In this document: positions 31,790-64,000 of the stretch, piece after piece
Position numbering within the stretch: position 1 is the first letter of the stretch
Layout of the letters: each line of letters starts with the position of its first letter
From: Malacoraja senta
Taxonomy: Eukaryota
Reading direction: 5' to 3'
Length of the DNA stretch: 64,000 nt
NCBI GenBank assembly: GCA_038087875.1
Contig: CM075991.1
Span: 7,566,001-7,630,000 of the forward strand
The notes under the pieces: generated by a model
Database searches by the model: none
Told to the model about the DNA's origin: nothing
What the model saw: the letters and a program-made list of their open reading frames with translations, nothing else
Translations under genes and position numbers: made by a program

Positions 31790-31792
31790 TAC

Positions 31793-37559: not shown

Positions 37560-37875
37560 CAGTTTAGTTCAGCCTAGTTTAGGAATACAGTGCAGAAACA
37601 GGCTCTTCAGCCCACCGAGCCCGCACTGACCTGCGATCCCCGTACACCTACACTATCCTACACACTAGGGACAATTTACAATTTTTACCGAAGCCAATTA
37701 ACCTACAAATCTCCACGTCTTTGGAGTGTGGGAGGGAACCGGAGCACCCGGAGAAATCCCAGGCAGTCACAAGGAGAACACGCAAACTCCGTACAGACCG
37801 CACCCGTAGTCAGGATCGAACCCATGTCTCTGATGCTGTAAGGCAGCAACTCTACCATTGCGCCACTGTGTTACC
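37560..37875 (-). mobile_element. HE1-type V-SINE
   Basis: Reverse complement of SINE unit. Confidence 0.88.
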
Positions 37876-37894
37876 TTACTTAGATGTACAGAGC

Positions 37895-41879: not shown

Positions 41880-42745
41880 ATTTCCATTTCAATCAACCTT
41901 TATTGTCATCTTGCAAGCAACAGTTGTACAGAGCAAAATGAAAAGACGTTTCCCAGGGAATACTGGAGCATCGCACATGAAATTTAAAACATTTCACACA
42001 TAATGACATTAAAAACAATCCAGTCCCTAATAGTTAAAAAGTAGGTAAAACAACAACGTTAAAATACAGTAAAACCAATCATAAACATGTCCGGGGCAGC
42101 TGATTTGAGTGGCCAGTGCCAGTTATTGAAGTGGCCAGTGCCAGTTATTAAAGTGTCCGTGCCAAGCCGCAGAATCAGGTGACTGTGAGTACAGAGTGGC
42201 TGTTTAGCAGCCTCACAGCATATGGCAGGAAGCTGTTTAGCAGTCTTGTAGTCCGGGCTTTGATGCTGTGATATCTCTTGCCTGATGGCAGGAGATCCAG
42301 GTGTATGTGGAGGGGGTGCAGTTTGTCCTTAGCAATTCTCTGAGCTTTTTTCAGACAGCGACTCTGGAACAGTTCTTGTACCGAGGTAGGGTGACGCCAA
42401 TGATCCTCTCTGCTCCCTTCACTACCCTCTGCAGAGCCTTCCTGTCCGAGCAGTTGCAGGTGGAGTACCACGTATTTAAACAGTACGTGAGTACAGGCTC
42501 CACCGTACCCCTGTAGAAAGTCCTGAGGATGTTGGTGGGGAGTGAGGCCTGTGCAGTCGCAGGAAGTGCAGTCGCTGATGGGCCCGTTTGACGGTCCCAG
42601 TGGTGTTCCTGTACCAGGTGAGGCTGTCTGTAATTTGCACCCCGAGGAACTTTATGCTCTCCACTCTCTCCACTGTGGCGCCACTGATGTTGAGGGGTGT
42701 ATGCTTTGGCTGCGCCCTCCTGAAGTCGACAACCATCTCCTTTCC
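41880..42745 (-). mobile_element. Rex1/Babar-like LINE 3' portion, frameshifted
   Basis: KEMVVDFRRAQPKHTPLNISGATVERVESIKFLGVQITDSLTW; FYRGTVEPVLTYCLNTWY; LLPSGKRYHSIKARTTRLLNSFLP. Confidence 0.9.
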
Positions 42746-43149
42746 AATCACTAACCAATGACTCCAATGAGTCGCCTAAATAATCGCCTAAGTGGGACAG
42801 GCCCTTAAGGAGAAGAGAAGGCCAATTCCCTGACCCGAGAGATCAATAACAAGGGGGCAGTTATTTAAGGTAGTTTGTCACAAAATTTGATGAAGCTGAA
42901 TAAAGATTTTTAACCTAAAGTGTGGTGGGGTCCAAAACTGTCCCCAATGAGTGGTGGAAGCTGGAAAGCACATCTCATTTATAAGATACTTGGAATGGGC
43001 TCCTAATTTTCCACAAAGCTGTAGATGGATAGCTGGAAAATGGGGATTGTCCACATATTTTGTTTATTGGCCCCAAAGGACATAACTGGCGCAATGGTAC
43101 ACTTTTGTAAACCAGCATCTGCAGTTCCCTGTGTCGCTCTGGTGTCACG

Positions 43150-43358
43150 TTCACAAGTTATTGGAGTAGAATTAGGCCATTCGGCCCATCGCATCTACTC
43201 CACCAATCTATCATGGTTGATCTCTGCATCCTAATCCCAGTTTCCTGCCTTCTCCCCATAACCCTCGACACCTGTTCTAATCAAGAATTTATCTATCTCT
43301 TCCTTCAAAATATCCACTGACTTGGCCTCCACAGCCCTCTGTGGCGGAGTTCCACAGT
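43150..43358 (-). mobile_element. CR1 LINE 3' end
   Basis: PQRAVEAKSVDILKEEIDKFLIRTGVEGYGEKAG. Confidence 0.85.
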
Positions 43359-44129
43359 TCCTTCTATGCTGTGCTTTTCTTTGATTCCTGCATTGAATGG
43401 GACCCAGGGTAATGTCGCCATTAGCAAGCTGCTTCTGTGCAAGCATTGTCTGCAATGCAATTTGATATATTTCTCCTTTAAATTAAAGAAGATAGATGGT
43501 GTTTGACCCATTGAAAATCGCCTTCTTGTGTGCCAAGGTTAGACATTGTATGGGATCAATGCAAATTTAACACTTCAGGAAACATGTAAAAAAGCCCCTG
43601 TTCTGTTTGTTGCCTCTACGTACAGGCCAGGTGTAATTTAGTTGTTATTCTTTCCCATTTATCGCTGCAACTCCCAATCAATTTTGTATTTATTTCTCAG
43701 GTTTATCATCTATGCCTTCTGCTCCTTTTCAAAGCTACCTCTTGCCTGTGTTTGACACAGTGGGTTCCTTCTCTTCTTCACGTGAACTGCAGGAGGGGGG
43801 AATAAGGGTGCAGAATAGAAGAACATAGCAATACAGGTGGGAGTTTTCCATACTGCGCCACATGCCTCTTGTATAAATAAGCCTGGCCAGTCATTAATTC
43901 ATGGTTTATCCTCAAAATCTTTTCCAATCCATATATTGCCATTCTCGTTATGTTCTAAGATCTATAAGCCTCAGCCTTAATGCTATTCAAAACTGAGCAT
44001 CAGTTCTCAGAACTATCATCTCTATCTCAAAGAATCACCTCATTGCAGCCCCTAATGCCTTATCCTGAGGCAGAGCTACCTTTCTCCAGATATGCCAGCA
44101 GGGGGAAAAAAATCTCTGTTAAAGCATAA

Positions 44130-44552
44130 TGGCACAGTGGCGCAGAGGTAAAGTTGCTGCCTCACAGCGCCAGAGACCCTGGGATCGATCCTGACTACCA
44201 GTGCAGTCTGTAAGGGAGTTTGTAGGATCTTCCCGTGACAACGTGGGTTTAAGCCAGCTACTCCGGTTCCCTCCCACATTCCAAAGATGTGCAGGTTTGT
44301 AGGTTAATTGGCTTCTGTAAATTGTCCCTAGTGTGTGTAGGATAGAACTGGTGTACACTGGTCATCGTGGAGTTGGTTGGCCAAAGGTAGACACAAAATG
44401 CTGGAGTAAATCAGCGGGTCAGGCAGCATCTCTGGAGAGAAGGAATGGGTGATGTTTCTGGTCGAGACCCTTCTTCGGACTGACGTTTCGGCTCGAGACC
44501 CCTCTGGCCAAAGGGCCTGTTTCCACACTGTATCTCGAAAGAAAAAGTTAAA
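44130..44552 (+). mobile_element. HE1-type V-SINE with nested PLE module (44386-44500, minus)
   Basis: SINE head and V domain; tggccaaagg duplicated around the insert. Confidence 0.85.
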
Positions 44553-45909
44553 CATATTCAGAATACCACGTTAAATTTGAGAACAATTCCCATTCTCCTT
44601 CAATTCTGTAACTCCGCATAGATGAAGACTTTCATGCTGCGAATGACTACAGCAAATCTGCACTGCACTGTGTCCAGAGGAAATCCCTTCCTCTGATGTA
44701 AAGGTCAAATCGAGAGCAATACTCCAGATGCAGTATCACCAGTTGAAGTAATATGTCCTCACCGTTATACTCCTGAAACCTTGCAATAAAGGTCAAGATA
44801 TCATTTGACTTCCTTTTCACTCACTGTAACTGCACACCAAGAAGCCACCATAGACCAACATTTACTAGCTTCTCAAAGAAAATATTTTTCCTCTATTCCT
44901 TACACTAAAGTGAGTAAACCCACAATTGTCGACATTATAATCTATTATCTACCAAGTTGCTGCTCAATCTATCTATTATCTCTTTGCAACTACTCTTAAT
45001 TCCTTGTTACAGCCACTTTCTTACCTTCTTCCGTACCGACACCAAACTGGAAACTCTGAGGAAGAATCAAGGAACTGCGGACGCCGATTTACAAAAAAAA
45101 AACACACAAAGTGCTGGAGTAACTCAGCGGGTCAGGCACAGCACTGGCAGGCCGTGGTGCCTGACCCGCTGATTTTCCACAAGAATAACTTAGATGAGTA
45201 TCAGAGTTTCCAAAAGAAGACACAAAGTGCTGAAATAAATCAGCGGGTCAGGTAGCATCAACTGCATAATGCTATCCGGGCCCGCTGATTCGATCCAGCA
45301 TTTTGTACCTCTGTTGGAAACTAAGACTCATCTAAGTTTTCCTTGTGGATAGTAAAAATAAATGATGGCAATCCATAATTAAAGATCATCAGTATGTAAA
45401 GACCTATCAATTTCTCTTTCCTTTAACAAATTTCTCTATTCATAATAATTTGTTACTGCACACCCCAATGTAGCAGCCTTCGCGAATGCCTATTAAAAAT
45501 CTAAATATACTACATCTATAGTCTCCCCTTATCCATCCTCCTGGTTGTAACCTCAAAACACCTATTTGATCATCTTCATGATTATTCTGATGTAATTTGG
45601 TAAATATTTTTAATATTTTCACTGTTACCACCTCATTTTCCTCACAGCTGATTTTCAGCTGACTTTTTTTTCTTTCAAACTATGTGGTAGATTGGTGTCA
45701 CCTTTGCTTTCTTTCAATCTGCTGGATCTATTCTAAAGTCCCCAAAAATCTGAAAGTTCTCTTCAACGGATCTATTATCCCCACAGTCATTTCGTTTTGA
45801 CCCAAGGATGCAAACTATCGGGTTCAGGAGAATCGTAGTTTATAATCATCTTAATTTCCCTAATAATTCCTCTTTATTGATAGTAATTTGACTTTCTCAC
45901 CTTCTTTAC

Positions 45910-46415
45910 TTTGTCAAGCTGGTAAGGGTGCAGAGAAGATTTACGAGGATGTTGCCAGGACTAGAGGGTCTGAGCTATAGGCAGAGGTTGAGTAGGCTGG
46001 GACTCTATTCCTTGGAGTGCAGGATGATGAGAGGTGATCTCATAGAGTTGTATAAGACCATGAGAGGAATAGATCGGGTACATGCACAGAGTCTCTTGCC
46101 CAGAGTAGGTGAATCGAGGACCAGAGGACATAGGTTTAAGGTGAAGGAGAAAAGATTTAATAGGAATCTGAGGGTTAACCTTTTCACACAAAGGGTGGTG
46201 GATGTATGGAACAAGCTGCCAGAGGAGGTAGTTGAGGCTGGGACTATCCCAACATTTAAGAAGCAGTTACATGACAGGTACATGGATAGGACAGGATTGG
46301 AGGGATATGGACCAAATGCTGGCAGGTGGGACTAGTGTAGCTGGGACATGTTGGCCGGTGTGGGCAAGTTGGGCCGAAGGGCCTGTTTCCACACTGTATC
46401 ACTCTATGACTCTAT
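45910..46415 (+). mobile_element. CR1 LINE 3' end, open frame
   Basis: QRRFTRMLPGLEGLSYRQRLSRLGLYSLE...SRTRGHRFKV...FTQRVVDVWNKLPEEVVEAG. Confidence 0.93.
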
Positions 46416-47004
46416 TAGACGTCTTTGTTCTCCACTATAAATCATTGTATTAAGACTTGCAGAAAATAATTGTTTGAGTCATTAGCCATTTCATTATATC
46501 CAATTATAATTTTCCTTTCTCTCCGGAACTCAGAATTTCATTTGTTGGTTTCTTCCTTTTGAAATCCTTTCAGAAGTTGTTACAAACCTTTGTATTGTTT
46601 CTTGCTGGTCTATTCCTATCTATCTTCTTAGTTTATATTAATTTTTGATCATTCACTGCAACTTCCACAATCCCCAAGGTTGCCTTTTCATCTTAATAGT
46701 ATTATGTTTCTTTTAACATTATACAAACATTGACTTGTTTTGCCATTCACAGATGAATTGCTTTATTTTCTATTGGTTTATCTCTCAGTAATTTTTCCTG
46801 GAGCATCATGGAAGATGTCTTTAATTGCTTACCATTGTTCTGACAAAACCTTCACTATAACTTTTCTGTCTGCGTAGCCAACTCCAACTAATGGAATTGC
46901 CCGTACATTTTCATGTTCTATACTTCCGTGTGGCATAGAAGGAGGCTATTTGGCCCATTGAGTTGATGCTGACTCACAGAGCAATTCCATTCTCCACCAT
47001 TCTA

Positions 47005-47355
47005 CCTCCAGGTCCCTCTGGTCGGCCGACTTGGCCATCCTGCGGACCATCCAGTTATAAGCTCAGGGGCGACTGCACTTTTGCGGTTGCAGCACCTAGA
47101 CTGTGGAACAGCATCCCTCTTCTCATCAGAACTGCCCCCTCCATCGACTCCTTTAAGTCTAAACTTAAAACTTATTTCTACTCACAAGCGTTTCTTGAGG
47201 TCCTCTGAGGGAGCACTGTATGTATGTATTTATGTATGTATTGTTAGATCTATGTACCATTGTATGTAGCATGTTGGTACCTGCACTGATGTAAAACACT
47301 TTGGTCAACGAGAGTTGTTTATAAATGTGCTATAGAAATAAAATTGACTTGACTA
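47005..47355 (+). mobile_element. L2-clade LINE 3' end
   Basis: KLRGDCTFAVAAPRLWNSIPLLIRTAPSIDSFKSKLKTYFYSQAF; aaatgtgctatagaaataaa plus (ttgac)n. Confidence 0.8.
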
Positions 47356-47719
47356 ATTTCCCATTGACCTGTTTTCCCCATATTCCCCTCAATGTTATCA
47401 CCCACTTACCAGAGGAAGTAGCAGGGGACCGTGCTTAGTTCATGGTCAGCACAGACTCGATGGGCTGAAGGGCCAGTCTGCACGCTGTATCTCTCTATTA
47501 CTTTATTTCAAGATCACTCTGCATCAATCTGTCAACCACTAACAATACCTGCGTGAGACTACCTGCAGAGCTAGCTGGAGCATAAGTTATTGATGAGTAA
47601 AGTATGAATTTATACTGTAAAGTTTATACTGTAAAAGTTATTTACAAAACCGGATCTGTTTCATGTCAGTGCACATTTCAAGATTGAACAGGGCTACTGA
47701 AGTACAGACAGTTACATGG

Positions 47720-47910
47720 GACACAGAGTGCTGGAGTAACTCAGCAGGACAGGCAGTATATCTATAGAACACGGACAGGTGACGTTTCAGGGCGAGACCC
47801 TTCTTTAGACTGATTGTAAGGGGGTAGAAAAAAGCTGGAAAACCATGGCAGGTCGACAGTGGTCAGGGTTCTTGTCTCACAGGCAGATGATTGGAACAAA
47901 GGCCAGAGAT
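47720..47910 (-). mobile_element. PLE 3' end
   Basis: Module with decayed hammerhead plus upstream UTR. Confidence 0.7.
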
Positions 47911-48421
47911 AAGAACTGAAGGTTCCTTCTTCCTAACCCCATTCTCCTGCCTTCTCCCCATAACTTCTGACACCCATACTAAGCAAGAATCTATCTATCT
48001 CTGCCTTAAATATATCCACTGACTTTTCCCATGGTTAAAGTTTCACAAGGTGTCGGTCACTGTTTATATGGTCAGGATGATTTTTTTAATAATTATGCCT
48101 GTGGATGAGAAAAATTCCACGGATGTGCGAGTGTTACACAAACACAACACAAAATTAACGAGAACATGTGCGATTTTGTACAAGATGAAATGTTTCTGTT
48201 CTCTGCCTACATGTGGATACACATGGTTTGCATTCTGCAAAATAATGTAAAATCCATTATAAGGATTCTGAAGCCAGAGAATGTGTCTGAACTAAGATTA
48301 TTCTTGTGAATTGTATATATTATTTACGCTTTCATCTGGAGTCAACAATCGTTTTCATTGCTTGTGCACTTGACATGGGATAAAGAGCAACACCCTGCAT
48401 GTACAATTTGCTCCCGGAGAT

Positions 48422-48655
48422 ATGTGAATCTGTGGAATTCTCTGCTGCAGAAGGCAGTGGAGGCCAATTATCTGGATGTTTTCAAGAGAAAGTTAGATAT
48501 AGCTCTTAGGGCTAATGGAATCAAGGGATATTGAGCGAAAGCTGGAATGGGGTACTGATTTTGGATGATCAGCCATGATCATATTGAATGGCGGTGCTGG
48601 CTCAAAGGGCCGAATGGCCTACTCCTGCACCAATTGTCTATGTTTCTATGTTTCT
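48422..48655 (+). mobile_element. CR1 LINE 3' end
   Basis: gtgaatctgtggaattctctg...gggccgaatggcctactcctgcac, (tatgtttc)n. Confidence 0.88.
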
Positions 48656-48688
48656 GTGCGAAGTGTAGCATTGAATCCAATTGAGTTA

Positions 48689-49008
48689 AAGCCCTGTCCC
48701 ACGGTTCAAGTTCATTCCAAGAGCTCTCCCGAGTTTAAAAAAAATCAAACTCATGGTAAGCACGGAGAATGAACGTAGCGGGTACGTAGAAGCTCGGGGA
48801 CGTCTCTTAGCACTAACGGCAGGTACTCGGGAAGACTCGCTAACGGCAGGTAAGCACGGGAAGACTCGTGAAGATTTTTCAACATGATGAAAAATGTCCA
48901 CGAGAGCCCAGAGTACCGACGAGTGGCCATTACCGTAAATCTCCAAGTTCGAATCAGGGCAAACTCGGGAGAGCTCTTGGAATTAACTCGTACCGTGGGA
49001 CAGGGCTT
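48689..49008. mobile_element. PIF/Harbinger-type MITE, 320 bp, opposite orientation to 19494-19821
   Basis: TIR aagccctgtcccacggt; TTA at 48686-48688 and 49009-49011. Confidence 0.85.
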
Positions 49009-49622
49009 TTAGGTGTGTTACAGTACTTTAGACTTTGGCTTTTGAGCAGTCTTCAGCCATGTGATGGATAACGAATGGGCAGCAGTTCTAATACTTGTTG
49101 ATGAACAAAGTTCATAGACTGGATGTGATATTGTGAAAGAGTGGCGGCAGGCAGTAGATCGGACTGTCCTGGGAACTTTTGTAACTTTGGCGGAGCCAGA
49201 AATGTAGTGCCACTTGTATTGTTTTTCCACTGACTGGTTAGCACACAACAAAAGCTCTTCACTGTACCTCAGTACATGTGACAATACACTAAACTAAACT
49301 ATACAGTCTAAGCGAGGTCTGCTTTTTTGATTTTACCAGATTGTATGCAAAACAAAGCATTTCACTGTACCTAGGTACATGTGACAATAAAGTATCAAAG
49401 AATTGAATAATTGAAAATGCTGTTTATATTCCAAGCCACATAAGTGATAATTTACTGATGAAATTACAGGAAGAGTGAAGCAATATAATTCTAAATTTTG
49501 CTTACCAACACCCCCTTTAAAGTTGACTCTGACTCTTAAAAGTTGAAGTGAAAAGGAAACAGAAAGTGAAATAAGAAGGAAAGTAATTGCAACAAAATTT
49601 TAAGTTGTTAAATCCTTTAGTA

Positions 49623-49853
49623 ATCTATGGACCCATCTCCAAAATTGTGTTATTGGTAACCTCCTTTGTTTTCTCCTTCTCTATTATTTTATAGTTTCCC
49701 TTTTTTTTCCCTTTTTTTCTTTTCTTTCTATAGTTCTATCTTTCAAAAATATTTTTTTATAAAAAAAATAGAAGCTTTGCATATATGTAATTGGTAATCA
49801 AATCGTGTTTTGGCTATTATATGCTTCTAATAAAAATATTAAAAAATAAATAA
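49623..49853 (+). mobile_element. Short L1-type 3' UTR insertion with 13-bp TSD
   Basis: T-rich UTR, cttctaataaaa and A tail like 10881-11312; TSD aaatcctttagta at 49610-49622 and 49854-49866. Confidence 0.75.
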
Positions 49854-49902
49854 AAATCCTTTAGTAGCGCTTGAAATGCAGGAATGAGATGCAATTTTAC
49901 AT

Positions 49903-50003
49903 TGAAGATAGACACAAACAGCTGGAGTAACTCAGCGGGTCAGACAACATCTCTGGAGAAAAAGAATAGGTGACGTTTCGGGTTGAGACTCTTCTTCAGA
50001 CTG
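49903..50003 (-). mobile_element. PLE terminal module
   Basis: gacgtttcgggttgagactcttcttcag core. Confidence 0.8.
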
Positions 50004-50734
50004 GATATTTCACATTGTTCTATTTCCTAGTCAGAGAGATTGATTTGCATCTCTGTAACAATTAGTGAATGATTAAAAAGAGGTTGCCATTCTCAATCAC
50101 CATTCTGTACTTTTTTCATCAGCTCATAAGGTGATAGGGAATAGGAGTAGAATTAGGCCATTCGGCCCATCAAGTCTACTCCACCATTCAATCATGGCTG
50201 ATCTATCTCTCCCTCCTAACCCCATTCTCCTGCCTTCTCCCCATAACCTCTGACACCCGTACTAATTAAGAATCAATCTCTTTCTGCCTTAAAAATGCAG
50301 CATCTTACAGCAGATGTTGAAGGAGCGGAGCCTCCTCAGAAAGTACAGACGGCTCTGTCCCTACTTATCCAGTGTTCCTGTCCAGGTAAACTCCAAGGTA
50401 CTTGTACTGCTTGGTAAACTGCGCATCCACACCCTTGATGGAGACAGGGGGACAGGGGTGTTCCTCTCCTCCTAAATTAATGAACGCATGTGTCATTAAC
50501 ATGCTATTACTTTGCCAGTACAATTTGGACCTTTGCACATTCAGAGAGTCTCATTGGCACATGGTCACTCAGAACTCTGTGGCCACCCTTATTCAAGCAG
50601 AGGCCAAGTTTCCAAGATGAGTTGAAAAATCAATAGTCGAGATAGAAATTGCAAATAAAACAACGATAATGTGATTCAGAGCAGTGGAAGGTGATAATGA
50701 TAAATTATAGAGAAGGGAAAGTCTGAATTATAAG

Positions 50735-51175
50735 TTCATGTTCATAAGTGATAGGAGCAGAATTAGGTCATTCGGCCCATCAAGTCTACTCACCCATTCA
50801 CACATGGCTGATTTATCTTTCCCCACTGAACCCCATTCTCCTGCCTTCTCCCCCTAAATCCCTGACACCCATTCTAATCAAGAATCTATCAATCTCTGCC
50901 TTAATTATATCCACTGTCGGCCTCCATGGCCTTCTGCGGCAAAGAATTCCATAACTCACCACCATCTGACTGAAGAAATTCCTCCTCATCTCCTTCCGAA
51001 AAGAACGCCCTTTAATTCTGAGGCTATAACCTCTAGTCCTAGACTCTCCCACTAGTGGAAAAATCCTCTCCCCATTCACTCTATCCAAGCCTTTCACTAT
51101 TCTGTAAGTTTCAATGAGGTCTCCCCTCGTCCTTCTGAACTCCAGCAAGTACAGGCCCAGTGGCGTCAAACGCTT
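50735..51175 (-). mobile_element. CR1 LINE 3' end (shorter one at 50120-50295)
   Basis: LGLYLLEFRRTRGDLIETYRIVKGLDRVNGERIFPLVGESRTRGYSLRIKG. Confidence 0.9.
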
Positions 51176-51564
51176 GGGTAACTGTGCCAAATAGTAAAGA
51201 ACATCCTGGAGAAATGGATAATGAAGTACAGAAAAATGATGGACTAGTAAGAGGAAGTGAAAATATTTGATGGAAAATTCATGCTTTATCAATCTTTATT
51301 GCATTCTTTGAGGGAGTCATAGAATGTTCATCAGAGATGAACACTGTGCCACACATCATTCCATTAGGAGTGTACACCTCCACTTCAGGGAACCTAATGG
51401 CACTGATGGTCTGATATTGGCCAGGCACTGTGCATTTACTCAGCAGCGGCATGAAGAGGCAAGGAGCGGCACGTTTTTTTAAAATATCCCCAGTGTTCGA
51501 GCTCCATCATCCTCTGGGAGAGAATTCCAGGGATTCGCCACCTTGATCCAGGTTGTTGTCCTGA

Positions 51565-52125
51565 CACTGAAGAAGGGTCTCGACCTGAAACATCACCCAT
51601 TCCTTCTCTCGAGAGATGCTGCCTGTCCCGCTGAGTTAATCCAGCTTTTTGTGTCTATCTTTGGTTTAAACCAGCATCTGTAAGCAGTTCCTTCCTACAC
51701 AACTGATTATTTCATCTCACTAGCATTGAGAGCTAGCTTGTTGTCCTAACACCACGACACAAAGCACTTACAAGAAAGGACACCACTCTATATGTGAATG
51801 TGAAAATATAACAGGACGACTGATCGGAGGTTTGGTGAGTTTGAGAAGAATAGAGCTATGGAGAGAAGTGGTCGGCAAGAAAGACTCCTCAATATGCATC
51901 ACTCCCCCAGGTCTGGCTCAGTGGAACCGACATTGGAATTGCACAAAGCCAGAACTGCAGGTCTGATGTAAATCAAACAGTTGTTTTTCTTTGTGTACGA
52001 AAGAACTGCAGATGCTGGTTTAAATTGAACGTCGACACAAAATGCTGGAGTAACTCAGCGGGACAGGCAGCATCTCTGGAGAGAAGGAATGGGTGGCGTT
52101 TCGGGTCGAGACTCTTCTTCAGCCT
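51565..52125. mobile_element. Two PLE modules (51565-51700 plus; 51992-52125 minus)
   Basis: Full modules; second flanked by duplicated cagttgtttttctt. Confidence 0.8.
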
Positions 52126-53029
52126 TTTCTTCTTCAGTTGTTTTTCTTTCTCGTGTGTGCTCTTTCCCCGGCGTGCTCATTGCATTGAACTTTCCTTCCG
52201 ACATCCCTCTCCAGGGGATGGCAAGACAATGAGAGCAGGTCAGGCTAATTGAGAGCGCTGCCCGCTGACTTGCTTTCCTCCTCCACCCCCTGACACAGGG
52301 TGCACTTGCAACAGGATGGGCCTGATAATCATCACGAGAAGTAACCTTGATTGGCTTTTCACGAACCCAGGGGGCGGATGGCAGGCGAGCAAACACGCAG
52401 CGGGAAGGATAGCGAGCATCTTTTGGATGCGTCTGATTCAGCACCACGCTGGGCACAAATCAACTTTAATGCTCGAAACACTGAGAGCAACAGAAATAAA
52501 GTTATTACTTAAACATGAGCTGAAACAATTAATTTACGCTTGGCTATCTGCCTTCACTCTTCCTAACCTCACCTAGACTATAATTATTATCAAGTGTTTT
52601 TTTTAATGTGGTACATCTGCTGAAGTGCCCTTATTACCAGTGACATAAACATTCAAGTCCAGCTCTGGTGAATTATAAGCCCTTCTAGTTCAACCCGAAG
52701 TTGGTGGTCCATAGATTGGCTCCAGGAGCTGCCAGATCATGCTGTGTTTCAATTCTCCTGTCTCCTCTCTGCTCATGCAATTATTTTGCACAGCACTTTG
52801 AGATTTTTTTTTTTATTCTCTCACGGTCAGTGGGTACTTATTAACCTTTTTTTCCCTCGTTCGAGCGCTGTCATCTTGAGCAGTGATATACTCACGGGTC
52901 CCCTTCAGAGACCTGAGCAGCATCGCCACGTGTTTCTCAAAGAAAGGACACTTTTGCCTCCTTTTCTGCTCTTTTACTTTTCTTCTCCTCTGAACCCATC
53001 ATCAAGGACCCTCACCATCCTGGCCACAC

Positions 53030-53345
53030 ACTCATGTCTCCGCTGCCTTCAGGTAGAAGGTACAGGAGCCTGAAATCTGCAACATCCAGGTTCAGGAACA
53101 GCTTCTTCCCCACAGCCATCAGACTATTAAACTCAATTCAAACAAAAATCTGAACTTTAATAGCCTATTGCACTTTATCTGCTTATTTATGTATGTATAT
53201 ATATATATGTATATATTCAATGGTATATGGACACACTAATCTGTTCTGTATTTATTTATGTCTACTATGTTCAGTTGTGCTGAAGCAAAGCAAGAATTTC
53301 ATTGTTCCATCTGGGACACATGACAATAAACTCTCTTGAATCAAT
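53030..53345 (+). mobile_element. Rex1/Babar-like LINE 3' end
   Basis: LPSGRRYRSLKSATSRFRNSFFPTAIRLLN; tail atctgggacacatgacaataaa. Confidence 0.8.
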
Positions 53346-53569
53346 GTGACCTTCAGGGAAATGCCTGTGGCAGGTCACCTTTGGACTACAGGTAAGGGAT
53401 CTCATAGAAACATAGAAACGTAGAAAATAGGTGCAGGAGTAGGCCATTCAGCCCTTCGAGCCAGAGCTGATCATCCAAAATCAGTACCCCCTTCCTGCTT
53501 TCTCCCCATATCCCTTGATTCCATTAGCTCTAAGAGCTATCATCTCATGAGTGAATCTCAACCATTGTG

Positions 53570-54130
53570 TTTAGTTTAGTTCAGTCTCATGTGTACCGAG
53601 GTACAGTTAAAAGCTTTTTGTTATCCAGTCAGCGGAAAGACTACAACCAAGCCGTCTACAGTGTACAGATGCAGGATAAAGGGAATAACATCTAGTGCAA
53701 GAGGAAATCCAGTAAAGACAGATTAAAGATAGTCTGAGGATCTCCAATGAGGTACTGTAGATAGTGGCTCCCTAGTTGGTGATAGGATGGTTCAGTTGCC
53801 TGCTGACAGTGAGGAAGAGACTGGTCCTGTATCTGGAGGTGTGCCTTTTCACACTTCTGATCCTCTTGCCTGATGGGAGGGGGGTAGAGAATTGTGCTGG
53901 TAGCCTTGCCGGGGCAGAGTGAAGTGTAGATGGGGTGAATAGAAGAGAGGCTGGTTTGTGTGACGGTCTGGGCAGCGTTTACAATTCTCAGCGATTTCTT
54001 ATGGACTGGCACGGAGCTGTTAACAAGCCATGCTGTGATGCATCCCGATAAAATGCTCTCTACAGCGCATCTGTAGAAGGTGGTGAGAGTTGTTGGGAAC
54101 ATGCTGAACTTCCGAAGCCTTCTAACGAAC
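53570..54130 (-). mobile_element. Rex1/Babar-like LINE 3' portion
   Basis: TLTTFYRCAVESILSGCITAWLVNSS...LRIVNAAQTVTQTSL. Confidence 0.88.
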
Positions 54131-54477
54131 TAATGAAGTGAAATCAGTGGTTGATCTGACGTAGGTATCCTACATCTCTGCAGGATAACCATGGAATGAT
54201 CTGCTTCAAAGACAGATTCAGATCAGATGAGTTTATCATCATATATATCAAGTGCAATGAAATTCTTTGCTCACACTACCCAGCATACATATAGTCACGA
54301 TAACTACAACAATAATAATCACAATGAGAGCAAAACAGCAGAGTGGTGCAAGATTGTGGTGCAAAATCCAAAGTAGTGTAAAAAAATATTAAATATAAAA
54401 GTACAATAATGGAATGTGTTAGAGCTAAGAGTGAGAGTACGTGGCAACATCTCAGAGAAATGAGGTTGGAGGAGGTC

Positions 54478-54683
54478 AAACACAAAAAGCTGGAGTAACT
54501 CAGCGGGTCAGGCAGCATCTCTGGAGAAAAGGAACAGGGTTCAGAATGGAGTCTGAATCCAAGGTCTCAATCCAAAATATCACTTATTCCTTCTCTCCAG
54601 AGATGCTACCTGACCTGCTGGGTCACTCCAGCTTTTTGTGTCTGTCTTCAGTTTAAGCAGCATCTGCGGTTTCTCCCTGTACA
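54478..54683. mobile_element. Head-to-head PLE module pair
   Basis: acacaaaaagctggagtaactcagcgggtcagg arm is the reverse complement of cctgacctgctgggtcactccagctttttgtgt. Confidence 0.8.
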
Positions 54684-54849
54684 GGATGAAAGAGGTAGGT
54701 GTTGGTTGAGGAGATTGATAGTAGTGGGGAAGAACCAGAATATCTGGCCCTTAAGTCCCGAATCGGTGCTTCCCTACCGGAGACTGCAGCAGGTCTCCGG
54801 TAGGGAAGATCTGTTGACTATTTCTACAGCAGCCCCATTCACTGGGACA

Positions 54850-55140
54850 AGGTTGTATTCACCCTTTCGCTTCCTTTGATGGGCAACAAATTCTTTCATC
54901 TCGCTAACGTTAAGAGCTAGGTTTGTTGTCTTGACACCATGACACATGGTACTGGATCTATTTCACGTACTTCATTTCATTATTGATGTTGATCCATCAC
55001 TGGTATCATCGAGGAGCTTTAAGATTGCACTGGCATTGTGTGCGGCTACAGGGCCCTGGGTGCACAGAATGCATCGCAAGGGGCTGAGTACACAACCCCG
55101 ATGTGTGCCAGTGATGAGGGTCAGTTTGGAGGAAATGTTG
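54850..55140 (-). mobile_element. LINE RT-domain fragment (Rex1/L2-like)
   Basis: Minus strand LTLITGTHRGCVLSPL, similar to the GxPQGCVLSPLL RT motif. Confidence 0.6.
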
Positions 55141-55154
55141 AGTTTTGCCGCTCA

Positions 55155-55565
55155 GTTTAGTTTAGTGCAAAGATAATAGTGTGGAAACTGGCCCTTCAGC
55201 CCACCGAGTCCTCGCCGATCAACGATCAGTCTGAAGAACGGTCTCGACCCGAAACCGTCGCCCATTCCTTCTCTCCAGAGATGCTGCCTGACCCGCTGAG
55301 TTACTCCAGCATTTTGTGTCTATTTCCGACCAATGATCGCCCGAACGCTAGTTCTATGCTACACTAGGGACAATTCACAAAAGCCAATTAGCCGACAAAC
55401 CTCCATGTCTTTGGAATGTGGGAGGAAACCGGAGCACCCAGAGAAAACCCACTCGGTCACGGGGAGAATGTACAAATTCCATACAGCTAGCACCCTTAGT
55501 CAGGATCGAACCCGGGTTTCTGGCGCTGTAAGGCAGCAAATCTATTGCTGCGCCATTATACTGCC
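55155..55565 (-). mobile_element. HE1-type V-SINE with nested PLE module (55226-55325, plus)
   Basis: ccga.caa.gatc duplicated around the insert. Confidence 0.85.
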
Positions 55566-55928
55566 TCTATAGTCAGTAAATGCTAGAGACTGTAGCAGAT
55601 AGAGGCCCCAAGGCAATGGTCCAGAATTTATTGGTTTCGTTCACAACCTGAAAATAAATATCAAAAATGAATCTAGTTCTTGTTGGTTTATTGTTAAATG
55701 CTCATAGCGTAAATACAACTTTTATGGTGCTCCAACACAGATTCCCTCCAAATGTGGAGAAAAGTAGAAAATACAATGTAAATCTTTCATTTTTATTCAT
55801 TAAACGTGGGACATAGAACAGTGCAGCACAGGCAAAGGCCCTTCAGCCCGCATTGTCCATTCTGAACATGATGCCAAATTAAATTAAACTGCACATGATC
55901 CTCACCCCACTTCATTTCCTCTCCTAAG

Positions 55929-56160
55929 CTAGACACAAAAAGCTGGAGTAACTCAGCGGGACAGGCAGCATCTCTGGAGAGAAGGAATGGGTGACGTTTC
56001 GAAGATCTGAAAAAGAAGGTCTGCTTCAGTCTGAAGAAGGGCCTCGACCCGAAATGTCACCCGTTCCTTCTCTCCAGAGATGCTGCCTGTCCCGCTGAGT
56101 TACTCCAGCTTTTTTGTTTCTATCTTCGGTTTAAACCAACATCTGCAGTTCCTTCCTACT
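55929..56160. mobile_element. Head-to-head PLE module pair
   Basis: ~70-bp inverted arms; catttcct.tcct duplicated in the flanks. Confidence 0.85.
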
Positions 56161-56549
56161 CATTTCCTTTCCTGCTAGGATCATGAATATTTCTGCCGGG
56201 AAAGTAGACGCAGAATTCACGGAACAACAGGATTTTATTTGAACTTTTCACATACAGTTTAAGTATTGTAATTTTTCATTCTAGACTTATTTACTGAATC
56301 AGTTGTTTGAAAGTAACTGACTTCATTTCCCATGGGATTTAAGATCACTTGACATGATTAAACATTCAGCAATTGACCAACTTAATCATATTCCTGACCT
56401 TTTCACGAGGCCAATATTATAGCTGTTGTTTCTTTTTTATTTATTCATTTCTCATGACCTGGGCTCGCTAGAAAAGCCTGCACTCCGTGTTCATCACTAA
56501 TCGCCCTTCAGATGGCAGGGGTGAGTCACATTCTTGAACTGCTGCAGCC

Positions 56550-56845
56550 TTTAGACTTTAGACTTTAGAGATACAGCATGAAAACAGGCCCTTCGACCCA
56601 TCAGGTCCACACCGACCAGCGATCACCCCGTACACTAACACTATCCTATACACTAGGGACTTACCGAAACCAATTAACCTGTTTGTCTTTGGAGTGTGGG
56701 AGGAAACTGGAGCACCCGGAGAAAACCCACACAGTCCCAGGGAGAACGTACAAACTCTATGCAGACAGCACCCATAGTCAGATGCGGACCTGGGTCGCTG
56801 GCACTGTAAGGCAGCAACTCTACCACTGCACCACTGTGCTGTCCT
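56550..56845 (-). mobile_element. HE1-type V-SINE
   Basis: Reverse complement of SINE unit. Confidence 0.87.
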
Positions 56846-57359
56846 TACAGTCCTTATAATGAAATTAATCCCACAGAAGGGTCTCGACTCGAAACGTCAC
56901 CTATTCCTTCTAACCAGAGATGCTGCCTGTCCTGCTGAGTTACACCAGCTGCTTGTGTCTGTCCCCACATAGTCATAGATTAATAGACAATAGACAATAG
57001 GTGCAGGAGTAGGCCATTCGGCCCTTCGAGCCAGATGCAGCAAAGAAACAAGCCCTTGACCCCACTGAGTCTGTCAACCATCCATTTACACATAATCTCT
57101 TTATTTTCCCCACATTCTCTCAATTTCCCCATCCTCTAGTATTTACCCACACAGCAGGGTCAATTTACAGTGCGTGATTATCCTGCCACCCAAATGTCTA
57201 TGAGATATGGGAGGAAACCCTCGTGGTTATGGGGAGAGCATGCAAACTCCACAGATCCAGCACCGGAGGTCAGGATTGAACCTGTGTCGCTGGAGCTTTG
57301 TAGCAGTGGCTCCATCAGATGCACCACAGTGTGGCCCTATGCGGTCAAAATACTCCCCT

Positions 57360-57740
57360 TTCAAGAGGCTGAGGGGTGATATTATAGAGGTGTAGAGAAT
57401 AGAAAGAGTGAATGCATTGAATCTTTAATCCCAGGGTTGGGGTATCAAGAACCATGGGACATAGATTTAAAGTGAGAGGCGAAAGATTTAATAGGAACCT
57501 GAGGGACAACTTTTCCACACAGAGGGTGGGGGAATATGGAATGATCGGCCAGATGAAGTGGTTGAGGCAGGTGCAATAACAGCATTTAAAGACATTTGTT
57601 CAGGTACTTGGGCAGTTAAGGTTTAGAGAGATATGGGCCAAACGCAGGTAAATGGGACTGGCTTGGATCGAGCATCTTGGGGGGTTGGCATGCTCATGTT
57701 TGGTCAAATGGCCGGTTTCCATGCTGTCTGACACAATGAA
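57360..57740 (+). mobile_element. CR1 LINE 3' end, decayed
   Basis: gaggctgaggggtgatattatagaggtg; gatttaataggaacctgaggg. Confidence 0.8.
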
Positions 57741-58219
57741 TATGAATATGCACAGCAATAACAAGAATAATCAATAAAATATTTTCACAGAAGAAGGGTC
57801 TCGACCTGAAACTTTGCTCATTCCTTCTCTCCAGAGATGCTGCCTGTCCCGTTATGTTACTCCAGCATTTTGTGTCTATCTTCGGTGTAAACCAGCATCT
57901 GCAGTTCCTTCCTACAAATATTTGGACATGATATACAACTTCCACAGTTTATTAAAGAGAGGACAGATACTGAAAGGCTGCTTCGACTGATTGGAGCACA
58001 GTCGTGGGATAAGTGTTTGAGCATGAAAGATTGAACTGAGGAGATTTCTTTCCACTCAGGGGGCTGTGAATTGTCCGAGTTCTGTGGTGAAGCTCAGTCA
58101 CCGAGCACACTTGAGACTGAGGTATGGAACTGGACACGCCAACGCCATTGCTGCAGTCCTCCAAGGTTAAGGTTGTCCTGTAGCTCTCCAAGGCTTAGGT
58201 ATGTCGAGGAAAGAACCCA

Positions 58220-58610
58220 AGGGGCACGTTCTTCACACAGAGTATCTGGAACAAGATGCCAGAGGAAGTGGTTGAGGCAGATGCAACAACAAGATTTAAA
58301 GGGAGATAGACACAAAATGCTGGAGTAACTCAGCAGGCCAGGCAGCATCTCTGGAGAGAAGGAATGGGTGACCTTTCGGGTCGAGACCCTTCTTCAGTTA
58401 CTCCAGCATTTTGTGTCTATCTTCGGTTTAAGCCAGCATCTGCAATTCCTTCCTGCAATATTTAATGGGAGTTTGCACAAGTGCAGAAGCATAGGAAAAG
58501 TTTAGAGAGATATGGACCAAGAGCAGGCAAACGGGAACTTGCGTAGATGGGGCAACTTGGTCAGTATGGGCTGAAGGGCCAGTTTCCATGCTGTATGACT
58601 CTGACACTAT
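58220..58610 (+). mobile_element. CR1 3' end with nested inverted PLE pair (58305-58456)
   Basis: atttaa.gggag duplicated around the insert. Confidence 0.75.
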
Positions 58611-58760
58611 GGACGGCAAAATACCTCCAGGTGTGGATGTGGTGGTAATAAGTGGGGAATCTTTATGTGGTGATGTTCCCTTGTAGTAAATTATGGCAGT
58701 TTAGTTTTGTTTAAGCTTAACTTAGCTTATTTTAGCTTAACTTAGCTCAAAGTATTCAGT

Positions 58761-58788
58761 CTGAAGAAGGGTCTCGACCCGAAACGTC
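58761..58788 (+). ncRNA. Intact minimal hammerhead motif in PLE module (58756-58852)
   Basis: CTGAAGA-A-GGGT(CTCG)ACCC-GAAAC-GTC. Confidence 0.8.
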
Positions 58789-59158
58789 ACCCATTCCTTC
58801 TCTCCAGAGATGCTGCCTGTCCCGCTGAGTTATTCCAGCATTTTGTGTCTACATTTAGTTTAGCTCAGTTTAGTTTCGTTTATTGTCACATATACCGAGG
58901 TACGGTGAAAAGCCTTTTTTTCCCCACTGGGTAGAGGTCAAAGATAATTAAACACATACTTTTTCTCACTTTTACTGATCCCAGAATTCTATTAGAAACT
59001 GAAGTTAAACTCGCTGCAAACCGCTGCAAACTGCAAACTCATCTTGATTATTAGTCCACTGACATGAGCACAACCCATCACACCCACACATTGATCACAA
59101 TCGATCTGCTTCCCTTGTGGCAGTGTTAGTCAAACCTGGAATGCTCCAGACTTCATTC

Positions 59159-59184
59159 TGTGTGTGTGTGTGTGTGTGTGTGTG
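59159..59184. repeat. (TG)n microsatellite
   Basis: About 13 TG units. Confidence 0.95.
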
Positions 59185-60055
59185 CTCTGTTTGCTGATCG
59201 CTGCCAGGGTGACAATATATAGCTACTAAAATTTACCCTGGGCTCCCTGGTTTGGTTTAGAGATCCAGCATGGAAACAGGCTCTTCCTACAAATTCAGAA
59301 ATAGGCTTGTATTAAGTTGCAGGTGAAGGCGAGAAATGGAGAGAACAATATCAGCAATATGGAGGAGACTGAGAGAGAGAGTGGCCAAACGTATATTGGT
59401 GTCAACTGGGAGAGTCTGAAGCGTTTTGGTGATGACAGGTTATCTGTCCGGAGAAGTATGAATGAAGGGAGAACAGTGGAGAGAAAAACACACATGAAAT
59501 TCTCCTGGAACTGTAAGAGCAGTTACTGAAAATCTGAAATAAAGGAGAACACTTAGAGGTCGGACAACATTTGTGGAGAAAGAAATGCAGAATGGCGCAT
59601 GCATCAGTACAGCTGCCTTATTTTCCTGGGTCCCAGGTTCGATCCTGACTTTGGTTGCTGTCTATATGGAGTTGGTACCTTCACCATCCAGGTGGTTTCC
59701 TCCAGGTGCTGCAGTTTCATTCCACATCTCAAAGATATCATGGCAGGCTAATTGGCTGTCTCCGATGTAGGGCGGAGGCAAAAGAATCAAAGGGGAGGTC
59801 TAGGGCGGTGAGAGCGAGACAGGTTGCAAGGCTACAGGGAAATAAGGAGATGGGGAATGGGACTAGATGGGATTCTTCCCCAAGGAGCTATTTTGACGGA
59901 CGCCAATTAACCTACAAACCCATGTCTTCGGGATGTGGGAGAATTGCAAACTCCACACAGACAGCACCCAAGGTCAGGATCCAACCTGGGTCTCTGGCAC
60001 CGTGAGGCAGCGGCTCTCTCAGCTGCGTCACTGTGCCGCCCTGTTCTAGTTAGGT

Positions 60056-60255
60056 NNNNNNNNNNNNNNNNNNNNNNNNNNNNNNNNNNNNNNNNNNNNN
60101 NNNNNNNNNNNNNNNNNNNNNNNNNNNNNNNNNNNNNNNNNNNNNNNNNNNNNNNNNNNNNNNNNNNNNNNNNNNNNNNNNNNNNNNNNNNNNNNNNNNN
60201 NNNNNNNNNNNNNNNNNNNNNNNNNNNNNNNNNNNNNNNNNNNNNNNNNNNNNNN
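60056..60255. other. Assembly gap (200 N)
   Basis: Run of N. Confidence 1.
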
Positions 60256-60429
60256 GGCCTTCAATGTTTGTGACATCCATCTATACTCTGCTTTGAAGGG
60301 AGCACTAATGTCTTTATTCTTCTGTATAAATCCAAATGTGGAATCTTGGCAAATATCTCTCTCATTGTTAGGTAGGAATTATACTGGTCTCTGACTCCAG
60401 CAACGTTGTAAAAAGAATAGAGAAATAAA

Positions 60430-60612
60430 GACCCCAGGATGTTCCCGAGTGTTTAACTGCCTTCTTCTGAAGTGTACTCCCTGTTGTAATGCAGGAGAGG
60501 CAGCAGCCAATTTGTGCAGAGCAGGTTGCCACAAACAATTCAGCGATGATGGCCAGATAACATTTTCTATTGATGTTTATTGAGACAGAATTGCTGGCAA
60601 AACATTGTAGAT
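60430..60612 (-). mobile_element. Old Deu-domain SINE remnant (SacSINE1/AmnSINE1-like)
   Basis: tgaagtgtactccctgttgtaatgcagga...gcagccaatttgtgcagagcagg...ccacaaaca resembles the remembered reverse-complemented DeuSINE. Confidence 0.65.
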
Positions 60613-61139
60613 AACCCGGCCTCGCTGGTGGTTGTGAGTTTATTGGAAGTTTCAAATGGAGCAAATCCAGACAAACACATTATGATTGCAGAACGTCTGT
60701 GAACCGTAGCAATTCTTTCCCCTCAGTTTTCACTTGTATATTCTGACAGCATCAGATGAGGCCATTCGGCCCATTTTTCCTGTGCCAGTTCAATAAAACC
60801 ATGTGGAAATGACAGTTTTATCAGTCGAGGAATAGAGCGCAAAAAGCAAGATGATGTCAAATCATAATTTCAGCCAGTTAGAATGTTGTGGCCAATGAAA
60901 GATGCATCTAGATGGACCTAATTGGTGTCAATCACCGACTCTTTCACTAGATGCTACAAAACATATCCTTTTCAATTTTGCGTCTGGTTTCATTTTAATC
61001 ATTACCGGTGCTTTTAGTGTAGAGAAAAAAGGTGCCCGTACGCATATAGATATGACTGTATGACTCTATAACTGGGGCTATCCCACCTCAACATCCCTGG
61101 ATATGAAACTGATCAATAAGTGAATCACTATTTCTGAAC

Positions 61140-61462
61140 ACGGAGCGACACGGTGGCGCAGCGGTAGAGCTGCTGCCTCACAGCGCCAGAGACCCCAGGT
61201 TCGATCCTGACCTCGGTTGCCATCAATGCGGAGTTTGCACGGTCTCCCCGTGACCACATGGGTTACCTGCGGGTTTTCCGGTTTCCTCCCACATCCCAAA
61301 GACGTGCGAGTTTGGAGCTTAATTGGCTGCGGTAAAATTTCCCCTTGTGTGCAGCGAGTCGATGTGAGCGTGAAGTTACATGGAACGAATGTGAATGGAT
61401 GATCAGTGGCCGTTGAAGGGCTGTTTCCATGCTGTGTCTCTCAAACTGAAACTAAAATTAAA
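61140..61462 (+). mobile_element. HE1-type V-SINE
   Basis: cacggtggcgcagcggtagagctgctgcc head, ggttcgatcc B box. Confidence 0.87.
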
Positions 61463-62114
61463 CCAACTCTTTGTCTCACCCTTCCCCATACGGTGGACAA
61501 AGACCCCGCTTTCCCTGCACCTTGACGTGACTGAAAGTTTGCTGATCTGGCAACATCCTTTTGCAGGTCCACCATCGATATTCCTGGAACCTGGGGGTCT
61601 GTTGCCTTTAATATGGTCAAAATTACGAGAGTGCACCTGAAATCACCCCCGAAAATCTGGAGCCTCGGCCGGGGTGAGGCGGCTGATCTCGACCTCATCG
61701 GGACTTCCGCGGCCGATCGGCGGGTTGAATTTGCCCCCGGAGGCCGGGGCTCTGGAAGTCCAGCTTGGCTGGAGCCAGCAGATCCTTCCCCATAGCCAAC
61801 TTCCGAGGCCAATTTTGCAGACCAGTATCTCGGTCCATTGGAGGCCAACGTTCCAGCACCGTTGGACTCCTCTCGGAGGCCATGACCACTGTTGCTCCGG
61901 CAAAACGGATAATCCAGAAAGGCTCTGGAACCAAGAATGGCGGAAAATCGTTGGTGATCAATTCTGCAAACTGTCCTTAACATTGACATTTTTTTCTCAT
62001 GTGTGCTGCTTAGTAATGGCCACAACATTCTAACTGGCTGATCTTATGATTTTTCATCATCTTGCTTTTTAGATGACAATGGAGGCCATATTAAGATGCA
62101 AGGCCATCTTCAAG

Positions 62115-62565
62115 TTCGCAAGTTCACGTTATGGGTGTAGAATTAGGCCATTCAGCCCATCGAGTGCACTCCGCCATTTAATCATGGCTGATCTCTGCCT
62201 CCTGATCCTCCTGCCTCCAAAGTTTTCCTGCCTTCTCCCCATAACCCTTGACACCCGTTCTAATCAAGAATCTGCCTACCCCTGCCTTAAAAATATCCAT
62301 TAACTTAACCTCCACTGCCCTCTGTGGCAATGAGTTCCACGGATTAACTACCGTCTGACTAAACAAGTTCCTCCTCACCTCCTTTCTAAAAGAGCGTCCT
62401 TTAATTCTGAGGCTCTGACCTCTGGTCCTAGACTCTCCCACCAGTGGAAACATCCTTTCCACATCCACTCTAACTATGCCTTTCATTATTCTGTAGGTTT
62501 CAATGAGGTCCCCCCTCAACCTTCTAAACTCCAGCTAGTGGAGGCCCAGTGCTGTCAAACGTTCA
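62115..62565 (-). mobile_element. CR1 LINE 3' end
   Basis: RGDLIETYRIMKGIVRVDVERMFPLVGESRTRGQSLRIKGRSFRKEVRRNLF. Confidence 0.92.
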
Positions 62566-62639
62566 AGTTGAGGACTTAACTTAGCAAAGACAGATTTATG
62601 CTCATGCAGTTTCGTACACCCATGCTGGGAAATTGGATG

Positions 62640-63060
62640 ATTTTTCTGTGGCACCGTTCCACTTCTTTGAAGAGCTTGCTGCAGGTGGCCCCTGTTACTG
62701 GACCATGCAATATCTGCAGCATCTTCCAAATCCATTGGCAGGATAATTGAACCAAGGTCCTCTTCCAAGCCAAACATCTCCAGCTTGAAGACTCCAATTA
62801 CACTCCACCAGCTGTAACATCCAGGAGGGATGATTAACTTGGCCAACATCTGAAACAGGCACTCTGCTCCGCGGCGTCAAGAGAATGCCAGGGGGATAGA
62901 GGAGTCGTTGCAAGGATGTTGTCAACGCCTCCTTGAGAAGATTTCACACCCTCATTGACTTGTGTAATTCTCTGGGCCAAGTCCAAATCAATTGGAAAGA
63001 ACATCTCGAAGGGGACAGAGAATTTCAAGTCAGAATCAGTCAGAGGCCCAGTCTCAGTGT
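62640..63060 (+). mobile_element. Decayed RTE-clade LINE ORF fragment
   Basis: Broken frames read SIFQIHWQD...KRMPGG*RSRCKDVVNASL, compare RTE ILQIHWQD...GKRxxGGQRKRFKDxLKASL. Confidence 0.7.
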
Positions 63061-63327
63061 ATAATGTAGCACCCCACCCACTTGTACTGTCCCATCAACA
63101 CCTCCTAGTCTACAAAGGCACGTCCTACGCATCCCACATAAGACTTGTCAAGTCCCCAAAGGTGAAAGCAAGCCAACCAGCATCTGCAGTTCCTTCCTAC
63201 TCAACCGTGAGGCACTGCCTCAGAGGAAAAGTAATTTGACCTACAGTTGCCGTAAGAATCACCAATGCCAGGAGAGGTTGCAGATATTGTGAATGCCTCG
63301 AGCACACGTCATCAACTTGTTCATCGA

Positions 63328-63710
63328 AAAACAAGGAACAGCAGATTCCGATTTAACGAGGAACGATGCAAAATGCTGCAATAACTCAGCAGGTCAGGCA
63401 GCATCCCTGGAGAACATGGATAGGTGAGCCGAAACGTCACCAATCCATTTTCTCCATGGATGCTGCCTGACCCACTGAATTCCTCCTGCAGTTTGTTCCG
63501 ATCGACTTCAGGCTTTCTCCGGGGTCTCCGGTTTCCTCCCACACTCCAAAGACGTACAGATTTGTAGGCTGATTGGCTTGGTATAATTGTAAATTGTCCC
63601 TAGTGTGTGTAGGATCGTGTAAGTGTGTGGGGATCGCTGGTCAGCACGGATTCGGTGGGCCGAAGGGCCCGTTTCCACGCTGTATCTCTAAACTAAACCA
63701 AACTAAAACT
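63328..63710. mobile_element. Inverted PLE pair (63328-63500) followed by SINE 3' half (63512-63710, plus)
   Basis: caggtcaggcagcatccctggagaa / ttctccatggatgctgcctgacc arms; SINE V domain and tail. Confidence 0.75.
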
Positions 63711-63785
63711 CATTAATATTTAATTCATCATCCCCTAACATGTTTGCATGTTTACAGGATTCAATCAGTCAGTCCTTTGCCTGAA

Positions 63786-63878
63786 GGTACACAAAAATGC
63801 TGGAGAAACTCAGCGGGTGCAGCAGCATCTATGGAGCGAAGGAAATAGGCAACGTTTCGGGACGAAACCCTTCTTCAG
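63786..63878 (-). mobile_element. PLE module, subfamily B, 17-bp flanking duplication
   Basis: tcagtcctttgcctgaa at 63769-63785 and 63875-63891. Confidence 0.82.
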
Positions 63879-64000
63879 TCCTTTGCCTGAAATGTCTGCT
63901 GTTATTCTCTGGATCAAACGCAATTTTTTTTTTTTTTTTTAAGTTATATTTTCTCAATTTCAATTCCACTTCGCTTTTTTTGTGAATCTGATCTTCGTAA

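Follow-up and report, generated by a model that had tools for sequence, protein, structure and literature searches.

The dispersed hammerhead-bearing repeat in the window, by which we mean the whole 64,000-nucleotide stretch of Malacoraja senta DNA analyzed here, is very probably the 3′ pseudo-LTR of a Penelope-like retrotransposon (PLE), scattered as 5′-truncated copies and carrying the known minimal hammerhead motif. We make this identification because the repeat is linked to an open reading frame (ORF) with reverse transcriptase (RT) and GIY-YIG endonuclease, and because many homologues of the encoded protein have the corresponding domains.

The letters at window positions 58761-58788 read CTGAAGA-A-GGGT(CTCG)ACCC-GAAA-CG-TC, exactly as reported in a first-pass annotation of this DNA, and the four other cores listed there as intact (at 1510, 4598, 19992 and 30519) all proved to be so. 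When both strands were searched with CTGANGA-N13-GAAAC, allowing at most one mismatch, 26 matches were obtained where 1.68 were expected and 100 shuffles gave no more than 6; about three of the 26 (8256, 34109 and 40877) looked like chance or very degenerate matches. The focal copy used as a BLAST query detected 44 pieces in the window and none in any of 10 shuffles, and nhmmer likewise returned 44 pieces, 27 of which contained the core, confirming that the dispersed repeat is real. Its previously assigned length of 97 bp is too short, because copies may have an optional tail of 35-40 bp and run upstream into a 3′ UTR and an ORF. The window is about 1.8 times denser in pieces than randomly placed samples (0.69 vs 0.39 per kb), and its neighborhood is also denser than those samples. 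Rfam models run on the window detected no hammerhead family even at E up to 10. The miRNA-like Rfam matches were rejected, as they correspond to inverted pairs of the repeat. Family features of the window are given below.

192..63879, both strands: all 44 family pieces
1508..1591, + strand: truncated copy, core intact
4452..4730, + strand: copy with 3′ UTR, intact hammerhead at 4598 (UUCG loop) and tail; 98.6% identity to the 3′ UTR of locus L093
5582..6096, + strand: longest copy in the window, with the C-terminus of the GIY-YIG ORF (5582-5740), 3′ UTR, hammerhead at 5962 and tail
13153..13321, no strand assigned: head-to-head inverted pair, centre TCAG(A/T)CTGA
19990..20108, + strand: truncated copy with intact core, internal deletion and tail
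26808..26986, no strand assigned: palindromic head-to-head pair centred on the ACGT palindrome, core without its 5′ half
30490..30652, + strand: intact core and tail, with a short inverted piece in front
54476..54685, no strand assigned: head-to-head inverted pair
55923..56163, no strand assigned: head-to-head inverted pair
58289..58458, no strand assigned: head-to-head inverted pair, 360 bp upstream of the focal copy
58742-58749 and 58860-58867, + strand: possible target duplication TTAGCTCA bracketing the focal copy
58756..58852, + strand: focal copy, very probably a 5′-truncated pseudo-LTR end of a PLE, without tail
58756..58762, + strand: TCAGTCT, the commonest copy start (190/571 at -7..+1), function putative
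58759..58790, + strand: 2-bp helix I, GU (58759-58760) with AC (58789-58790); U-A or U-G across subfamilies
58761..58788, + strand: minimal type I hammerhead core by sequence, fitting the published consensus; CUGAAGA 58761-58767, extra A 58768, helix II 58769-58772 with 58777-58780, GAAA 58781-58784, ACGU palindrome 58784-58787, predicted cut 3′ of 58788
63323..63544, no strand assigned: palindromic head-to-head pair, core without its 5′ half

The connection to a PLE, which had been suggested earlier, is established by ORF linkage, the tail, inverted partners and target duplications. The repeat lay 100-230 bp downstream, in the same orientation, at 25 of the 30 genomic loci where the endonuclease C-terminus was found; the 25 include one 15-nt piece and two rearranged cases, and a further locus, with the repeat at +97, falls narrowly outside the cut-off. 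Among 20 loci chosen for long RT frames, 18 had the repeat behind the matched ORF and the remaining two had it behind a second ORF copy. Extension upstream yielded a 693-aa frame containing DKG, YIDD, a C-x4-C-x2-C linker and a GIY-YIG endonuclease with CxxC/H/H. The single ORF with RT and C-terminal GIY-YIG, DKG and CCHH is the arrangement of an endonuclease-bearing PLE. Comparison of the frame with Pfam gave RVT_1 and GIY-YIG matches that were weak and under the cut-offs. RT or GIY-YIG domains were present in many of the 33 homologues of the element protein, and its matches included proteins named from Rhinoraja and Leucoraja, which suggests a skate or ray as host. Three loci (L092, L093 and L110) are continuous from the repeat into the ORF start, with pseudo-LTRs from partial tandems flanking the ORF, as in PLEs, and L110 has the repeat at both ends, ~4.1 kb apart. 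The ORF-start motif has 1,056 exact matches in the genome. Within the window, the 51 endonuclease codons at 5582-5740 show 71% identity to residues 642-692 of the 693-aa frame.

A CX2-5CxxC linker between RT and endonuclease, present here as C-x4-C-x2-C, suggests by this motif alone that the element likely belongs to the Neptune clade. The accessible part of Craig et al. (2021, PMC8557442) defines that clade by RT, this linker and, at the C-terminus, a GIY-YIG with CCHH, and describes partial tandems, an inverted 5′-truncated copy and a tail, all of which recur in the skate element; in contrast to the clade as described there, no microsatellite targeting was evident in the skate-element flanks examined. 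Nematis has the same linker according to that part of the paper, and the element may instead belong there. A skate neuromedin-U receptor 1 model (protein P0001) ends in ~60 residues of the element's endonuclease, a fusion that is either an annotation artefact or an exon capture.

To describe how copies end, we mapped insertion ends on 571 pieces in 1.06 Mb of sampled DNA, counting positions from C3. The 3′ ends formed two peaks, at +88..+101 (199/571) and +125..+135 (197/571); the second lies near the end of the model, but raw copies nonetheless stop there. The two peaks are separated by the optional 35-40 bp tail, a PLE hallmark. Inverted, 5′-truncated partners, which together with an optional 30-40 bp tail characterize PLEs, were also abundant, as head-to-head partners accompanied 249 of the 571 pieces where ~26 were expected. 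Target duplications were indicated by flanking words of at least 9 nt shared by 25 of 86 simple copies, compared with 1.2% of controls. The apparent duplication around the focal copy may be a chance match, given its TTAG-rich flanks.

At the 5′ side, 190 of 571 ends fell at -7..+1 and 13 within one base of the cut site, with no clear peak at +28 for copies derived from cut RNA (9/571, compared with 13 at +10 and 10 at +15). Because copies start just before the core and not at the cut site, the template of the dispersed copies was most likely uncut RNA. In the part of Frangieh et al. (2024, PMC11167929) available to us, the 30-40 bp tail of the Anolis carolinensis Poseidon element PAc is linked to two internal sites at which RT starts. 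If the skate element behaves like Anolis Poseidon, its protein would nick DNA and prime reverse transcription at either internal site (~+95 or ~+131 from C3), and the two start sites would give the two 3′ ends. Copying would then mostly halt a few bases before the core is reached; the probable cause is either that the template RNA begins at this point or that the RT stalls at a C-rich tract, and a halt at this place would imply an uncut template. The core would be held by selection in active source elements, and the dispersed copies would decay neutrally.

The sharpness of the common 5′ end might also be explained if the short copies propagate themselves as a SINE-like or retrozyme-like non-autonomous element with its own start at the hammerhead and a borrowed PLE protein. 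Consistent with this idea, 3,350 and 2,898 exact copies depart from the element directly upstream of G-2 and A-3, and C1:28.90 Mb carries a tandem array of 13 units, of 384 bp, that lacks the ORF. We nevertheless regard such an element as unlikely: the same subfamily sequences are also found attached to the ORF, the 5′ ends scatter across ~6 nt and grade upstream into a long tail of copies of greater length, and informal inspection revealed no diagnostic sequence peculiar to the short copies.

The sequence TCAGTCT at the 5′ hot spot resembles the consensus motifs of initiator elements and of CAG splice acceptors. A cap-G signature at the hot spot was considered and gained at most equivocal support: G preceded AGTCTG in 1,257 of 2,898 cases (43% vs 32-39% expected), a modest cap-like excess, but the excess was not position-specific, since a neighboring control position had a similar level (G in 53 of the first 100 rows, with an internal repeat accounting for a third of these). 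At L093:6407, ~720 reads in each of two RNA runs are joined, immediately ahead of A-3, to one shared foreign sequence; a search of the genome did not find this sequence.

A donor-like AAG/GTATG at the ORF start, ~165 nt downstream of C3, raises the prospect of splicing. A 165-nt hammerhead unit would be bracketed by an acceptor (pyrimidine tract and CAG) and this donor; splicing would drop the ORF and yield a hammerhead dimer or circle in which cutting is switched on, and the short copies, several hundred thousand in number, would have arisen as run-off cDNAs from uncut RNA starting at the ribozyme. An exact donor-to-acceptor join does occur in both inverted arms of one insertion (G000:C4:79,901,887-79,902,171; L151 and L152). 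Of 16 matches to the junction pattern, donor-side element sequence was present in only the two from this insertion, and relaxing the search brought in one further locus, L202, which is ambiguous, and a single chance match. Template switching on two shared bases explains the junction equally well. The RNA runs offered no support for splicing, as read depth continued across the donor and the best 24 of 100 rows contained no loose end from a spliced product. We consider this splicing scheme highly improbable.

The tandem array noted above (G000:C1:28,902,525-28,907,151; L193-L198) consists of 13 units of 384 bp, each composed of the pseudo-LTR and the ORF start with the ORF deleted. Six full units were compared and were identical, so that the array is either very recent or an assembly artefact; the motif is intact in each unit examined. 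Tandem units with a complete hammerhead, the hallmark of retrozymes, were found in this array and not in the window, and the array constitutes a ready dimer substrate. A unit-length back joint indicative of circular RNA was not seen among the best 15 of 147 joints in the RNA runs.

The motif itself agrees exactly with the consensus in the available part of Cervera and De la Pena (2014, PMC4209133); the agreement extends to the extra base, to G10.1-C11.1 and to the palindrome through which helix III would form in a dimer. The minimal type I layout proposed in the first-pass annotation is thereby upheld: CUGANGA, GAAA and UH are present with the extra base before helix II, positions 15.2-16.2 are palindromic, a stable helix III is absent, and ACGU occurs in all subfamily consensuses. 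Helix I closes the core with 2 bp (GU/AC, or GU/GC in one subfamily), at the short end of published examples. The extra A had been likened to that of a viroid hammerhead; it has been described in the minimal hammerheads of PLEs themselves and points to no special viroid link.

Conservation was assessed per copy and between subfamilies. Per copy, mismatches affected 18 of 816 core A residues (2.2%) compared with 18 of 204 at the free N7 position (8.8%; p=4e-5) and 55 of 1027 at invariant non-core A residues (5.4%); core G residues were mismatched in 17 of 412 cases (4.1%) and other G residues in 109 of 1396 (7.8%). Alignment anchoring and unresolved subfamilies could inflate this roughly twofold signal. 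Between subfamily consensuses, 0 of 11 core positions and 15 of 77 other positions were variable (p=0.11; range 0.11 to 0.23). The greater conservation of the core that had been proposed as a test of the ribozyme was thus seen within copies but not significantly between consensuses. In finer clusters, G12 varied once, at a CpG in one old cluster, and clear subfamily changes in the motif were located in loop 2, at H17 or at wobble-compatible sites. Across subfamilies, helix changes were one-sided and wobble-type, with no two-sided compensation. These patterns moderately favor selection on the core in the source elements.

Very short helices and unfavorable predicted folds would also suit a motif that is a non-catalytic relic retained for another role, such as protein binding or an initiator or splice signal, and Anolis ribozyme mutants were still inserted in vitro, according to the part of PMC11167929 at hand. 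This explanation is not a likely one, because conservation follows the catalytic positions and not the free N7.

The family is very large genome-wide, as had been surmised. The focal 28-mer has 18,728 exact copies in the 1.94 Gb genome and its reversed control has none. Samples placed regardless of the repeat (558 kb) contained 219 pieces, 122 with core, from which we estimate ~760,000 pieces and ~420,000 cores in the genome. Among 271 copies covering the whole unit, 117 retained the core bases; helix II was preserved as well in 85 of these, ACGU in addition in 51, and helix I on top of all the others in 36. All motif features are thus intact in 36 of 271 sampled copies, and tens of thousands of the estimated cores in the genome would be intact. 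A search of the sampled DNA with all listed descriptor variants gave 77 matches, all belonging to this family, and none in shuffles, so no hammerhead outside the family was found there.

Whether these cores cut RNA was approached by predicted folding, with models that ignore tertiary contacts and proteins. In all four copies, the hammerhead fold was 6-10 kcal/mol less stable than an inactive fold in which the purine-rich core pairs with a downstream pyrimidine stretch and is buried. A forced dimer fold was 28 kcal/mol worse than the minimum. Because helices I and II are short (2 and 4 bp) and the dimer fold is so unfavorable, the motif may not cut at all. The models suggest that in single copies it is likely near-inactive, which makes the original caveat about inactive monomers probable, and cutting is predicted only as a dimer or with the help of protein. 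Published precedents, as far as the available parts of the papers go, are similar: single minimal motifs were inactive and dimers weakly active (PMC4209133), the PAc hammerhead required protein for cutting (PMC11167929), and of nine Xenopus dimers one cut strongly and eight did not (Li et al. 2026, bioRxiv 10.64898/2026.07.22.740005).

In four RNA runs, the repeat was present in ~0.1% of reads and the core was covered at depths in the thousands, with no pile-up of read starts or ends at the core; the libraries were poorly suited and perhaps from a related species, and this absence is weak negative evidence on cutting. The tens of thousands of intact cores, their presence in RNA, the low activity of published dimers and the strong cutting by one Xenopus dimer could be taken to mean that intact copies work as ribozymes in host RNA, as monomers or as pairs joined through the ACGU palindrome. 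We hold this to be very doubtful in view of the monomer folds in all four copies, the missing read-end pile-up, the inactivity of published monomers, the protein dependence of the Anolis motif and the eight uncut Xenopus dimers. The earlier idea that the repeat might cut transcripts crossing it likewise gains no support, as only 36 of 271 copies are intact, the predicted fold buries the core and read ends do not accumulate.

The kind of feature is known; abundance alone stands out. The accessible part of PMC4209133 reports minimal type I hammerheads in the pseudo-LTRs of metazoan PLEs, mostly as single dispersed copies with some opposite-strand pairs, and with CUGANGAH, G10.1-C11.1, GAAA, a palindromic C-G at 15.2/16.2 and UH, as in the skate. 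Helices I and II are shorter in the skate (2 and 4 bp) than is typical there (4-5 and 7-8 bp), and a 2-bp helix I is also given for D. virilis. No cartilaginous fish was among the alignment rows examined in that part. The top vertebrate counts in it are ~4,000 and 9,000 descriptor matches, compared with 18,728 for one exact variant in the skate, by different methods.

Judged from the available part of PMC11167929, Anolis PAc resembles the skate element in its two 3′ ends and 30-40 bp tail, in a hammerhead near the ORF start, in an uncut RNA as the likely template and in the lack of RNA reads ending at the cut. The two differ in that the PAc ORF starts inside the hammerhead, whereas the first ATG of the skate frame lies ~165 nt downstream of C3, and in that the skate element has a Neptune-type linker. 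Animal non-LTR retrozymes, in the portion of Li et al. (2026, bioRxiv 10.64898/2026.07.22.740005) at our disposal, are likewise tandem units derived from pseudo-LTRs with a hammerhead in each, and are recorded in one chondrichthyan with a mean unit of 363 bp; the 384-bp array fits this description, whereas the window copies are dispersed monomers or inverted pairs. We found no specific description of a skate or shark family in the literature searched, which left Repbase, Dfam and most subscription papers outside, and the family may already be in repeat catalogues. What the skate family adds is scale, with ~420,000 estimated cores and tens of thousands of intact ones, and an extensive natural collection of insertion ends in line with the in vitro finding on Anolis that uncut RNA is the template. 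It bears on the role of hammerheads at PLE ends; it reveals no new ribozyme class and no effect on host RNA.

Pfam scans of 33 and 108 reading frames from the window found no host gene, and short exons could have been missed in such scans. ALKBH8_N (PF09004) matches at 9849-10223 and 53695-54129 are of a kind that typifies the ends of LINE ORFs. Another abundant repeat, ~300 bp long, is found at 25187-25504 and in no fewer than 15 further places (e.g. 3507-3808 and 14772-15054) and is SINE-like by length and number. The window also contains two runs of 200 N (26127-26326 and 60056-60255), a T-rich run of 122 bases (9359-9480) and a minisatellite of 13 copies of 12 bp (34818-34975).
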